In this document: in pieces, positions 7,435 to 13,803 of the stretch
Layout of the letters: each line of letters opens with the position of its first letter
Position numbering within the stretch: position 1 is the stretch's first letter
Source of the DNA: Patescibacteria group bacterium
GTDB lineage: Bacteria; Patescibacteriota; Microgenomatia; PFEM01; JAHIFH01
DNA length: 64,000 nt
Assembly (NCBI GenBank): GCA_035529375.1
Contig: DATKWU010000005.1
Location: forward strand, 521-64,520
Reading direction: 5' to 3'
The notes under the pieces: model-generated
The model's database searches: none
What the model was told of the DNA's origin: nothing
Seen by the model: only the letters and a program-made list of their open reading frames with translations
Translations under genes and position numbers: made by a program

Positions 7435-10400
7435 ATGTCATCAAAATCAACACTTAGCCAAATAAACAAAGAAACCATTGATGCCTATCAAGACAACTTG
7501 ATTAATGTCCTTAATCTCTCCTCGAGTACCGTTAATCGTCGCCTTTCAGCCTTACGTAAATTCGCTGCTTGGGCAACTAAGGCAGGTTATCTAAAAAACA
7601 ATCCTTTTGAGAAAAAAAACTCTTCTCTGCCTCAAGAAACAGAGATGGTCACTAAAAAAGAAAGTTGGCTTCAATCAGCACCAGTAAAACTAGCTAAAAT
7701 TGTCTTAGGTATTGTTATCATTATTATCCTCCTTCTCCTCTCTTCTTATCGCTTTTACTCTTATATTCGCTCCATGCGCATCCAACAAGTAGTAACGCCG
7801 ACTGCAGCCGCTTATTCACCTTGGATTATCAATTTTCAAGGCAAACTAACCACCAATACAGGCGAAGCAATTACTCACGAATCCCAGGTTGTCTTTGAAA
7901 TTTATAACCAAAAAGAAGGTGGTGCACCTCTTTGGCAGTCAAAAACTTGGCCTTTAGTCCCTAATCCTGAAGGTAAATTCCAAGCTCCGCTTGGCGATAC
8001 GACCCGAGGTGATTATGAACTTTCTTCCCAGATTTTCTTTCAAGAGGAAAGGCTTTATCTTGAAATTACGACTAATAATCAAAAACTTAGTCCGAGAATT
8101 CCTATCTCCTCGGCCGCCCACGCTGCAGACTCCTATTTATTAAATGAATTTCCACCATCCCAAGCTCCAGAAGGTAATATGGTTCCGGTTTTAAATGAAG
8201 AAGGTAATCTTATTCTGGCTGCCAACTCTCCTAAAATCAAATCAACCCAAGGCAATTTTGCTATCGAAGGTCAAGCAATCAGCCTGGTAACGCCAGTCGG
8301 ATCAGACGGCAATATTACCTTAGCACCTGATGGGTCTGGAGTGCTAAATTTAATGCTTAGCGCTGGTTCAGGTGAAGTGATAAATGCGATTGACGCAAAC
8401 TTAGGTATTTCTGGCAACAAAGAAGCTAACACTTTGTATTACGGTTATGTAGGCAACGACAATAAAAATTATAATCTCTTAAAACTTGAGGCCGGTTCGA
8501 TTCCTTCGCCTAAATTCACTGTTGATGCTAATGGCAATGTTAATCTCTCCGGTACCTTAACTTTAGGAACTAATACCCAAGTTTACGCAGGTATTTGTAA
8601 CTCAGCTAATAAGGGCAAAATCTACTATGACAGAGATACTAATAAATTTTATTATTGTGATGGTTCTGCCTGGACAGATCTCGCTGGAGCAACAGGACCG
8701 GCTGGTAACCAAGGAGAATTTGGCGGCTATTCAACTTCATTCAACTTCAATACTGATATTCTTGAAAACGATCCAGGTTCAGGCTACCTAAGATTTGACC
8801 ATTCAACCGCAACTGATATCAGAAAAATTATTGTTAGTGATACTAATGGTGATAATAAGGATATTGATGCTTTTTTAGACAATCTTAGGAATGGTGGCCA
8901 ATATGGCTACATTAGAATCTTTAGCGAAAGCAATGGAGCGGAAAAATGGTGGTATGGAAAAGTCAAGAGTGTTAATGATGAGGGTGATTGGCATAAAATC
9001 ACTGTTACTTTTATTGCTTCAACCGGGGGTAACCCCCCAATTTCTCAAGATGAAAAAACTGTTCTTACTTTTTCTCCAGCCGGTTCTGGTGGAACCGGTA
9101 CAAGTTCAACAGGTGCGACTGGTGCAGTTGGTGCTTCGGGACCAACCGGAGCGACTGGTGAAATCGGTGTAACCGGACCCACCGGACCAACCGGAGCCAC
9201 CGGGGCGATCGGTGCTTCGGGACCAACCGGACCTACCGGACCAACCGGAGCGACTGGTGAAATCGGTGTAACCGGACCCACCGGACCAACCGGAGCGACC
9301 GGTGAAATCGGTGTAACCGGTCCCACCGGACCAACCGGAGCCACCGGAGTCATCGGTCCCACCGGAGCAACCGGGCCAACTGGACCAACCGGAGCTACCG
9401 GTGAAGTAGGTGTAACCGGACCAACCGGACCAACCGGTGCGACCGGAGTCATCGGTCCCACCGGAGCAACCGGACCAACTGGACCAACCGGAGCTACCGG
9501 ACCAACTGGACCAACCGGCGCGACGGGTGAGGCCGGTGTAACCGGGCCGACCGGACCAACCGGCGCGACTGGCGCGGAAGGAGCTACTGGACCAACTGGT
9601 CCAACGGGAGCGACCGGCATTGAAGGTGAGTCTGGACCAACCGGTGCTACCGGTGAAGTAGGTGTAACCGGGCCGACCGGACCAACCGGTGCTACCGGTG
9701 AAGTAGGTGTAACCGGGCCGACTGGACCAACGGGAGCGACAGGAGCTGAAGGTGCCTCCGGACCAACGGGACCGACAGGACCAGTCGGACCCGATGGCAC
9801 TTCCCTCTTTTGGGAATATAATAACTGCGATGGGCCTAATGGTTGGTGCGGTCTAATTTTCCCTTATCTTGATCCTAATTCTCAGTCTTTGGCTTTAGGT
9901 AACGATGCCACAGCATCAGCCGAAATTTACTTTTCACCGGTGGCCAATAATGACTCGTGGATTAATGTCTCCGGCGGCGATTTTGGGATTGGAACAGATA
10001 CACCAGGAACGAAGCTTGATGTTGAAGGAAACATTACCGTAGGCGGTAATAATATTTACGATTCTGGAGGTGTTGTCATTACTTTTGATGGCTCACAAAA
10101 TACTGTCCTTGGAGGCGACCTTACCGCCTATCACATCTCTCCCCAATCTAATGATTCCTTTGACCTTGGTTCCAATACCGCCCGCTGGGCCAATCTCTAC
10201 CTAGGGCCAGAAACTCTCCATATCGGTACCAATACTTCCGATGAAGGCAGAATTTACTACGACACTACTTCCGATGACTTTATTTTTAACAGTGATGGTG
10301 ATGTTATCTTACAAAGCACCACCGGCAACGTGGGAATTGGGATGGTAGAGCCTGTAGTTAAATTAGATGTTAATGGCTCTGTCATTATGAGGCAAAAATA

Positions 10401-13400: not shown

Positions 13401-13803
13401 ATCAGAATCAGAAGAAGAATCTAGTTTCGGTAAATTAATTGTTAAAGGCGTTGATCAAGAAACAATTGCCTCAATTGATTCCTCGGGGACATCAACTTTT
13501 AAAAAGGTAGCCATTGCTAATGCTAAACAAGAAACTAATCAAATCTCAGAAAATGAAATTGAAACTAATGCCACTGCTGGCCAAGCTACTCTAACTGCCC
13601 ATGATACAGAAATCACTATTAAATCTCATTTTGTTACAGATGATACGATGATTTACGTTACCCCTACCAGTGACCCTGATAATAAAGTCCTCTTTATTAA
13701 AGCCAAAAAAGCTGATTCTCCAGAAGAGATTGGTTGGTTTAGAGTAGGCATTGATAAAAAGATTAATCAAGATATTAATTTCAATTGGTGGATTATTAAC
13801 TGA
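7435..13803 (+). CDS. Giant (2122 aa) chimeric surface-fibre-like protein: integrase-type SAM-like N-domain, one TM helix, collagen-like GXY region, His-x-His modules, C-terminal heptad-like region
   Basis: N-terminus [23 protein letters not shown] (integrase N-terminal-like). TM helix [16 protein letters not shown] at about aa 85-105. GXY triplets over about 240 aa. Three ~100-aa modules with HTHTH/HTHP/HNH motifs. Recurring motifs [15 protein letters not shown] and GIGT-P-KLDV-G. The C-terminal ~500 aa are E/K/I-rich with repetitive segments. Confidence 0.8.
9088..9797 (+). repeat. Collagen-like Gly-X-Y triplet repeat (about 80 triplets, mostly [12 protein letters not shown]) inside the giant CDS
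   Basis: Strict Gly at every third residue ([25 protein letters not shown]...). The DNA shows 9/27/54-nt periodicity. The minus-strand ORF 9045-9800 (PVGPVGP...) is its shadow. Confidence 0.85.
10733..11650 (+). repeat. Three tandem ~300-nt (~100-aa) modules encoding [30 protein letters not shown] ... PPYLDV
   Basis: The three copies align directly: [29 protein letters not shown] / [29 protein letters not shown] / [29 protein letters not shown]. Each ends PPYL(S/D)V(I/V). Each contains His-x-His pairs. Confidence 0.8.

Follow-up and report, generated by a model that had tools for sequence, protein, structure and literature searches.

Bacteria in the candidate phyla radiation (CPR) rely on physical contact with host cells, and to our knowledge the surface proteins characterized from them are few. 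For Bdellovibrio bacteriovorus, one report describes mosaic adhesive trimer (MAT) fibers, which are trimeric and chimeric and serve in prey recognition; MATs are ~1000 amino acids (aa) long, and while their N-terminal surface-binding domain is invariant, their C-terminal tip varies (PMC10769870). Very large DUF2341/FhaB-containing proteins of Patescibacteria have been suggested to function in adhesion or host interaction (PMC11809585). Here, we analyzed a stretch of 64,000 nucleotides (nt), referred to below as the window, from a Patescibacteria group bacterium (GCA_035529375.1, contig DATKWU010000005.1, positions 521-64,520), which contains a giant open reading frame (ORF) of 2122 codons behind a small ORF of 154 codons. 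We propose, with a probability that we put at roughly 60%, that the product of the giant ORF is the large subunit in a fissioned representative of an uncharacterized family of giant, membrane-anchored, modular surface fibers in Microgenomates-group CPR bacteria. A first-pass annotation had described a giant extracytoplasmic fiber-like protein with a cytoplasmic integrase-type domain, and this description was supported; comparative genomics, which it had suggested as a check, showed the architecture to be conserved in relatives. Two observations go beyond it: the upstream ORF ends exactly where the half domain of the giant ORF begins, and a structured RNA lies in the 141-nt gap between them.

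Results

One SAM-like domain is divided between two ORFs

The giant ORF proved to be a genuine reading frame on the plus strand with an ATG start (coordinates of all features are given in Table 1). We found that the small ORF codes for one complete SAM-like (integrase core-binding) domain followed by helices 1 and 2 of a second one, at which point it ends with ...NYLSDLRHFLSWLELKT-TAG. The giant ORF lies 141 nt away in the same frame, with two in-frame TAG codons in between, and its residues 4-60 cover just positions 41-95 of 98 in the SAM_5 profile or 37-83 of 83 in SAM_1. When residues 113-154 of the small ORF were joined in silico to residues 1-65 of the giant ORF, Phage_int_SAM_1 matched without interruption over positions 3-83 of 83 (51.5 bits, E 1.3e-13), compared with 25 and 27 bits for the separate halves at positions 2-34 (small-ORF tail) and 37-83 (giant-ORF head). 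The rejoined second domain thereby scored higher than the intact first domain (39 bits). Across the small ORF and the rejoined second domain, the matching Pfam models were Phage_int_SAM_1, SAM_4 and SAM_5.

Structure prediction agreed with this assignment. With both halves concatenated into a single chain and an alignment composed of the window sequences and database homologues, AlphaFold2 modeled the rejoined chain at a mean predicted local distance difference test score (pLDDT) of 92.3, with an equal helix pattern in both domains and a lower-confidence loop exactly at the junction. The leading Foldseek matches in the PDB were all core-binding domains of tyrosine recombinases (lambda Int, XerA, XerD, Cre, IntI and the isolated domain 3nrw, the latter with a TMt of 0.76). 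Their probability was 1.0, though at E-values of ~0.1 for this small fold. We conclude that one core-binding domain is divided here: its second half precedes the transmembrane (TM) helix, and its first half forms the C terminus of the adjacent 154-aa protein. The integrase-type N-domain of the first-pass annotation is thus right in kind, being core-binding and SAM-like by both profile and fold, but it is only a half domain that the upstream gene product completes. It is also far from "nearly identical" to the upstream ORF, since 23 of 56 residues (41%, E 5e-11) were identical to small-ORF residues 45-99, with a T[VI]... motif in common.

Unsplit homologues indicate gene fission

The small-ORF family comprises at least 223 database proteins, and the best 120 of these are 149 to 173 aa long and 50 to 72% identical to the small ORF. 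Every aligned member stops at the same point, namely 2 to 5 residues after ...NYLSDLRHFLxWL. A scan of species-representative genomes yielded 24 loci and a metagenome scan yielded 80 loci (153 relatives found); where taxon titles were informative, the loci came from metagenome-assembled genomes (MAGs) of Microgenomates, Shapirobacteria and Roizmanbacteria. A good number of titles were generic or inconsistent, and many MAGs that carry the module (L002-L023) are titled "uncultured Gammaproteobacteria," "Nevskiaceae" or "Bathyarchaeia," which are probably placeholder or wrong taxonomies. At 57 of the 86 loci with a canonical small-ORF end, the downstream ORF starts with the half domain and continues with a TM helix and then ...YLSFQGRL.... 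The distance from the stop codon to this ORF ranged from 0 to 814 nt across split loci, and the complete giant ORFs among them measured 2122, 2687 and 2672 aa.

A HMMER search with residues 1-142 of the giant ORF recovered 176 representatives, many of which (1300-6048 aa) did not align at their N terminus but at target residues ~150-240. One such protein, P0173 (1869 aa), was called as one gene on contig L106 and has complete SAM-like domains at residues 6-93 and 119-214. Small-ORF residues 1-149 aligned to its residues 1-150 (49% identity) and giant-ORF residues 7-364 to its residues 163-523 (38% identity), with ~12 residues between the two matches. The order in unsplit forms is two complete tandem SAM-like domains, a TM helix and then 1300 to 6000 further residues. 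Because these unsplit homologues are colinear with the small and giant ORFs taken together, we conclude that the locus arose by gene fission, and because the architecture is conserved across the family, the giant protein is not a one-off chimera. No catalytic Phage_integrase domain was matched in either ORF at E-values up to 0.01, and the NCBIfam models for XerC and XerD scored 18 to 54 against cut-offs of ~330. Neither the split pair nor the unsplit forms have a catalytic recombinase domain; they contain recombinase core-binding domains and are not recombinases. The database names given to the small protein ("site-specific integrase/XerD") are misleading.

Stop and start codons are kept at fixed positions in split loci. 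In some split lineages they lie 0 to 13 nt apart or overlap (ATGA); in others, whole genes coding for NYN-like or four-helix-bundle proteins stand between the small and the giant ORF. The split state is under selection as two polypeptides. At L005, L007, L009, L010, L014, L048, L076 and other loci, an NYN/LabA-like gene (...VFIDxANI...) or a gene for a four-helix bundle resembling 23S rRNA intervening-sequence (IVS) protein or Avd lies between the RNA described below and the giant ORF, and genes seem to insert preferentially in the fission gap. At Roizmanbacteria-type loci (L014, L015, L017 and L020-L023), a basic mini-ORF of 52 to 62 aa with the motif ...L+xWFDPALEGSPYD... replaces the RNA in the gap (e.g., at 9469-9627 of L021).

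A structured RNA marks the fission point

The gap in the window contains a conserved structured RNA, which we recovered with a length of ~75 nt at ~50 loci of one large clade. It is GC-rich and begins 1 to 37 nt past the small-ORF stop codon. A closing stem of 10 to 13 bp, P1 (AAUGCGGGCNGCC / GGUAGCCCGCAUU), encloses P2, a hairpin whose loop is rich in G (GGAGGGGAA or GGGGGGAG), and P3, a U/A hairpin of variable length that is shrunk to CCGCUUUUGG in short forms; a conserved AUUUuGAUUAUAaCAc tail comes next. In the window, P1 pairs 7306-7318 with 7370-7382, and the second in-frame TAG (7372-7374) lies inside the element; the P2 loop is AGGGGAA (7332-7338), P3 is a variable U/A hairpin, and the conserved tail reads AUUUCAAUUAUAUCA. 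The sequence of P1 differs between classes yet remains complementary (GCAGGCC/GGCCUGC, CGGUGGACC/GGUCCACCG and GGUAGACC/GAUCUACC).

A first covariance model, built from 14 long forms with the structure specified by hand, gave 47 matches in 683 kb searched on both strands, nearly all of them on the plus strand and at a single position 3' of the small ORF. Paired cells amounted to 84.9%, compared to 76.8% in shuffled alignments (0 of 500 reached the observed value) and 31 to 45% with slid partners, and compensatory changes occurred in 18 of the 22 RNA pairs. Since 22 of the 38 sequences have G-U at one of the P1 pairs, a plus-strand RNA is favored over a DNA cruciform. Consistently, the second-round model (54 matches) scored 98 bits on the plus strand and 21 bits on the minus strand. 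Covariance models were used because RNAalifold gave no structure for an unedited MAFFT alignment that included every RNA class, in which the length-variable P3 disrupts the alignment.

In Rfam 15, we found no match overlapping 7305-7394, either at E-values up to 10 (positions 6000-7600) or in a gathering-threshold scan of the window, and the motif was found neither in unsplit loci nor in IMG/VR. A divergent class (GGUAGACCGCUACUCAAAGGAAACCUAGGGGAAGGCUC...GAUCUACC) at L005, L034, L037-L039, L045, L055 and L059 keeps the P1 logic and the G-rich segment; this class, with its GGUAGACC stem, was detected by neither covariance model. An extra short GC hairpin (GCCUGCCGGCAGGC) lies between the stop codon and the RNA in L003 (6157-6190), L028 and L030. 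A reading of the RNA as a high-copy mobile element was considered and rejected, as the scans (~690 kb searched per scan) gave one copy per locus, beside the small ORF.

Where genes have been inserted, they lie downstream of the RNA, which assigns the element to the small cistron, at its 3' end. P1 is followed by AUUUU or AUUUC, but it encloses a conserved three-way structure of 50 to 90 nt, and a consensus terminator scan made no plus-strand call. The geometry of P1 and the U-tract suggests an attenuating terminator or a 3' stabilizer, and the conserved loop suggests a specific partner. Bearing on a reading of the G-rich loop as a Shine-Dalgarno (SD) mimic, SD sites were found at 18 of 47 ORFs of the genome, those of the small and giant genes not being among them. 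At the 3' end of the cistron for the small subunit, the RNA most likely serves as an attenuating terminator or stabilizer, as a protein-binding site, or as both, which would set the ratio or the coupling of the subunits.

Modules of the giant protein

In the Kyte-Doolittle profile (19-residue mean) of the giant protein, residues 84-102 formed the sole segment exceeding 1.6, in agreement with the single TM helix of the first-pass annotation, and the position of this segment is kept across homologues. The isoelectric point (pI) is 9.75 for the N-terminal part and 4.4 for the ectodomain. The predicted cytoplasmic part is strongly basic (pI 10.1), and the acidic ectodomain contains 21% Ser plus Thr. 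BLAST comparison with 14 family members gave a layout of two conserved blocks (residues ~1-365 and ~1460-2122) and a variable middle. Within the first block, residues 126-365 were 27 to 54% identical to the same region in these 14 members and in P0001-P0003. The C-terminal module was 24 to 48% identical across 500 to 720 aa to all 14 members tested, and searches of Pfam, the PDB and phage genomes gave no match to it. Its I/E/K-rich composition was as annotated, but of the heptad-like character ascribed to it, a crude proxy retrieved two short coiled-coil-like stretches only (residues 1652-1679 and 1795-1828). No LPXTG motif was present in the giant protein.

The variable middle consists here of a collagen-like run, a GIGT region, a DUF2341 domain and three His-pair modules. 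We counted 82 GXY triplets, close to the ~80 annotated, 77 of them contiguous at residues 560-790. This run makes up 11% of the protein, is encoded by tandem repeats with periods of 18 to 126, and implies a trimer. Two of the three annotated copies of GIGT-x-P-x-KLDV-G are canonical (residues 851 and 967), and the third (residue 1436) is degenerate. The GIGT region matched 8ond_A (Bd2133) in phmmer with an E-value of 2e-4 over ~45 residues, and 8on4 and 8oml more weakly. Elsewhere in the family, this part has the motif in dozens of copies, other collagen runs, CBM_4_9 (P0279) or a weak Peptidase_S74 match.

The three tandem His-x-His modules of the first-pass annotation were likewise recovered, at residues 1093-1197, 1198-1302 and 1303-1412, with a pairwise identity of 48 to 56%. 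Each is ~105 aa in size and has the signature GW, G..GG, two His pairs and PPYL, the two His pairs being nearly invariant in an alignment with 39 homologues. HxH occurs at residues 1162, 1239, 1267, 1344 and 1378, with an additional HxxH in module 1. The module cores were modeled as all-beta with pLDDT >90, and a fold search of the PDB gave no match to them. Together with DUF2341, the three-module block recurs in separate proteins of 500 to 850 aa. We considered the phage tail-collar family (PF07484) for these modules and rejected it, as Pfam gave no such match even at E-values up to 5; a subthreshold match to YmaF was the sole Pfam signal in that range.

Genomic neighborhood

The genes around the pair are envelope and housekeeping genes (Table 1). 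The upstream NPCBM and YfhO genes also stand 5' of the small ORF in L002, L009, L072 and L076, and the PMT_2 gene is also present in the close relative L002. Full-length homologues of the downstream Wzy_C/TPR gene (27 to 31% identity) follow the unsplit fiber gene directly in L107 and after two small genes in L108. This synteny with envelope genes supports, without proving, an extracytoplasmic glycosylation of the fiber. Further downstream, genes for an M23/LysM peptidase, Rho, RadA and S1 and an rRNA operon indicate a chromosomal setting, and TatC is also among the neighbors.

Table 1. Features of the fiber locus and its surroundings, in window coordinates
Feature	Position	Strand	Evidence
PMT_2-family (GT-C) glycosyltransferase	202..1887	-	Pfam
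NPCBM-domain protein and YfhO-like membrane glycosyltransferase, upstream	1947..6013	+	Pfam
Sigma-70-like promoter candidate TTGACA-18-TATAGT, 5' of small ORF	6607..6636	+	11/12 consensus matches only
Small subunit gene, 154 aa, pI 10.0	6829..7293	+	Pfam Phage_int_SAM_1 E 6e-15
Conserved structured RNA	7305..7394	+	Covariance model R1, 92 bits, E 1e-18; sole match in 64-kb window
Giant subunit gene	7435..13803	+	ATG start, 2122 aa
Helices 3-4 of split second SAM-like domain, aa 1-60 of giant, predicted cytoplasmic	7435..7614	+	Pfam partial match
Single TM helix, aa 84-105 (putative signal anchor, N-in)	7684..7749	+	Hydropathy peak 2.95
Membrane-proximal ectodomain, aa 126-365, conserved family-wide	7810..8529	+	Sequence identity to relatives
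Collagen-like GXY run, aa 560-790, 77 triplets	9112..9804	+	Pfam Collagen E 4e-28
GIGT-x-P-x-KLDV repeat region, aa 838-1000 (fiber shaft motif)	9946..10434	+	phmmer to MAT fiber chains
DUF2341 domain, aa 1027-1086	10513..10692	+	Pfam E 5.6e-16
Three tandem His-pair modules, aa 1093-1412	10711..11670	+	Self-comparison, homologue alignment, predicted structure
Conserved C-terminal module, aa 1460-2122, ending ...FNWWIIN	11812..13800	+	Identity to family members
Polytopic membrane protein, Wzy_C-like (O-antigen ligase/polymerase type) region and TPR, downstream	13827..15788	+	Pfam

The small ORF is preceded by an unusually long (816 nt), AT-rich noncoding stretch (6013-6828). At 6710-6826, this stretch contains a 38-codon ORF (MTKYSQHYSFEKSKNFTGLAEVFVALLIFSCAFIWLFL) with a hydrophobic tail, which ends one codon before the small-ORF ATG and is in frame with it. 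Two tandem tRNA-Ala genes (anticodons CGC and GGC) lie at 15833-15985, directly 3' of the Wzy_C/TPR gene. The rRNA operon (21517-29355) is interrupted between the 23S (21717-24632) and 16S (27892-29355) genes by tRNA-Ala, tRNA-Ile on the opposite strand and an ORF for a 715-aa VirD4/TraG-like coupling protein (25569-27716). A 1380-aa PT-repeat protein encoded at 32191-36333 on the minus strand, with a GC content of 0.50 to 0.52 and a strong GC skew, may be another surface protein; the antisense 1181-aa ORF at 32357-35902 is probably a by-product of the PT repeats.

The small-ORF family and the RNA were essentially absent from 2.9 million viral contigs. Neither the His-pair modules nor the C-terminal module had a tblastn match among 50,697 phage genomes, and the N-terminal ectodomain gave two weak matches, both in one uncultured megaphage.

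Discussion

We favor a reading of this locus as that of a split surface fiber. The small protein would remain in the cytoplasm and dock on the cytoplasmic tail of the fiber by fragment complementation, thereby rebuilding a basic two-domain foot with a pI of ~10, and ~2000 acidic, Ser/Thr-rich residues would be exported. The exported part would trimerize via the collagen run and comprise a conserved base, a variable shaft and a conserved distal module of 660 residues. The shaft would be formed by the collagen run, the GIGT repeats, DUF2341 and the three His-pair modules, the latter probably holding metal ions on the trimer axis, and the fiber would probably be glycosylated by the syntenic GT-C-type enzymes. 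Its most likely role would be that of a contact or attachment fiber of an episymbiont, with a foot that would connect the fiber with nucleic acid or with a partner in the cytoplasm.

Several points weigh against this proposal. We infer the topology, trimerization, glycosylation and metal binding of the fiber as well as the docking of its subunits, and nucleic-acid binding by the SAM-like foot is conjecture. The AlphaFold model is that of a concatenated chain, with just two homologues for the giant ORF's part of the alignment. The distal end appears to be conserved and the middle variable, which is opposite to the arrangement in phage and MAT fibers, and we therefore do not assign an adhesive element, if there is one. 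The C-terminal module could instead be an assembly chaperone.

A doubtful alternative is that the protein is a trans-envelope contact sensor. The fiber would report host contact, and the half-domain interface would hold or release the basic small subunit, which once released would bind DNA or RNA, possibly its own 3' RNA, and alter gene expression, comparable to membrane-tethered regulators of the ToxR or RsgI type. Such a function would suit the linkage of cytoplasmic domains of a nucleic-acid-binding type to a huge ectodomain by one TM helix, the strongly basic small subunit, and its conservation (50 to 72% identity), which is far higher than that of the ectodomain (27 to 54%). It would also suit the RNA, which stays with the small ORF even where genes are inserted downstream, and the carbohydrate-binding modules of some members, such as CBM_4_9 in P0279. 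However, nucleic-acid binding, release and target sites are all without evidence, release of the subunit from unsplit forms would need proteolysis, and one TM helix in a trimeric fiber is a poor conformational transmitter.

We also consider it unlikely that the protein is a structural, glycosylated scaffold of the envelope, similar to an S-layer, rather than an adhesin, with a foot that only positions or oligomerizes the fiber. The envelope genes kept in synteny (PMT_2, YfhO, NPCBM and Wzy_C/TPR) and the high Ser and Thr content argue for a scaffold, as does the conservation of both ends, unlike that in host-range fibers with variable tips. However, exchangeable middle cassettes (collagen, GIGT arrays, DUF2341 with HxH, CBM and S74) are typical of interaction proteins, and there is one copy in the 64-kb window, as searched by tblastn with only the small ORF and the first 70 residues of the giant ORF.

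More speculatively, and in our view improbably, the core-binding domains may have been recruited as the nucleic-acid-binding cytoplasmic end of a trans-envelope contact device, in which, in the fissioned lineages, the half-domain interface would tether a small basic regulator reversibly and the RNA would be its cognate ligand or a synthesis-coupling element. If true, an ultrasmall episymbiont would thereby have a novel means of coupling host contact to gene expression.

It is very unlikely that the split is merely apparent and that recoding across the RNA, whether by a ribosomal hop, by reading through TAG or by excision of RNA, yields a single polypeptide. The pair does share a frame in the window, with two TAG codons and the structured RNA in between, and P1 draws the ends of the insert together. 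However, L002, a 95% relative, has TAA in place of TAG, and the gaps of 82 to 226 nt are in frame at some loci and out of frame at others. RNA-less loci keep the stop codon and ATG within 13 nt of each other, and several loci have whole genes between the RNA and the giant ORF; together, these observations argue against read-through, hopping and excision. The start and stop codons also lie at conserved positions, and no matching take-off and landing codons were seen when the sequence was read directly. TAG recoding or an alternative genetic code was likewise rejected, the other ORFs of the window being normal under table 11. The degraded prophage offered by the first-pass annotation, in which integrase N-terminal fragments would lie beside a tail-fiber gene, can practically be dismissed, for although integrase-type domains adjoin a collagen/HxH fiber protein that is matched by PHROG tail-fiber families, those matches are restricted to the GXY run, no capsid, terminase or other phage genes occur among the housekeeping and envelope neighbors, the arrangement is kept in >100 loci and both ORFs are under purifying selection, unsplit homologues place the SAM-like domains in the fiber protein itself, and almost nothing was found in IMG/VR or INPHARED.

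The split-fiber proposal describes a widespread, conserved family whose signature combines SAM-like domains in tandem with one TM helix and with modules conserved at the N and C termini. This family is a concrete candidate for CPR contact structures and offers a handle for antibodies, cryo-electron tomography and comparative genomics. Its fission within a small helical domain is stable, and since fused and split states are both extant, it should lend itself to work on fragment complementation and subunit stoichiometry. The covarying RNA motif is new to Rfam. Hundreds of Patescibacteria entries named "site-specific integrase/XerD" are not recombinases.

Comparison with known systems

Parts of this architecture have counterparts in several well-studied proteins. 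Tyrosine recombinases (XerC/XerD, lambda Int and Cre) share the profile and the predicted fold of both cytoplasmic domains; the family described here differs from them in lacking the catalytic domain, in having two tandem copies of which the second is split, and in its linkage to a TM helix and an ectodomain of giant size. Phage long tail fiber tips, such as that of T4 gp37 (PDB 2xgf), have HxH metal sites on the trimer axis. In contrast to gp37, the His pairs here are arranged two each in ~105-aa modules with GW, G..GG and PPYL, and they occur in a nonphage chromosomal context. Surface proteins with a long GXY triple-helix region are also known, namely Scl1/Scl2 of Streptococcus and Lcl of Legionella. 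However, the giant protein reached 116.6 bits against an NCBIfam cut-off of 325 for the Scl type, has neither an N-terminal signal peptide nor the V-domain architecture, and ends in ...FNWWIIN rather than carrying an LPXTG motif.

With respect to the very large Patescibacteria proteins, the SAM-like foot, TM anchor, fission and RNA are undescribed in that report, whose text contains the word "integrase" 0 times (PMC11809585). Within the library searched, a literature search for the architecture of a SAM-like foot joined to a fiber, for its fission and for the RNA returned nothing.

The likeness to MAT fibers is closer. Both are long, chimeric and presumably trimeric surface fibers, and Bdellovibrio, too, lives on other bacteria. 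By sequence only, they have the shaft motif G-x-GIGT-x-P-x-KL-V-x-G in common. Both also seem to exchange domains in a modular manner, the Peptidase_S74 match in some members being reminiscent of the S74-class MATs. However, the anchor here is predicted to be a TM helix with a cytoplasmic foot of tandem core-binding-type domains, split at this locus. The conserved part is the C-terminal 660 aa, the middle varies, and the N terminus consists of half a SAM-like domain and the TM helix. Neither a collagen run nor His-pair modules appear in the available portion of the MAT report (PMC10769870). Judging from the protein sequences, the Bdellovibrio MAT fibers are the closest characterized analogues, and the protein would work most like these and other bacterial fibers of a tail-fiber-like type, yet their N-domain and variable tip were not encountered in the family. 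What is new in the present system is the stable fission within a domain, together with a previously undescribed RNA motif.

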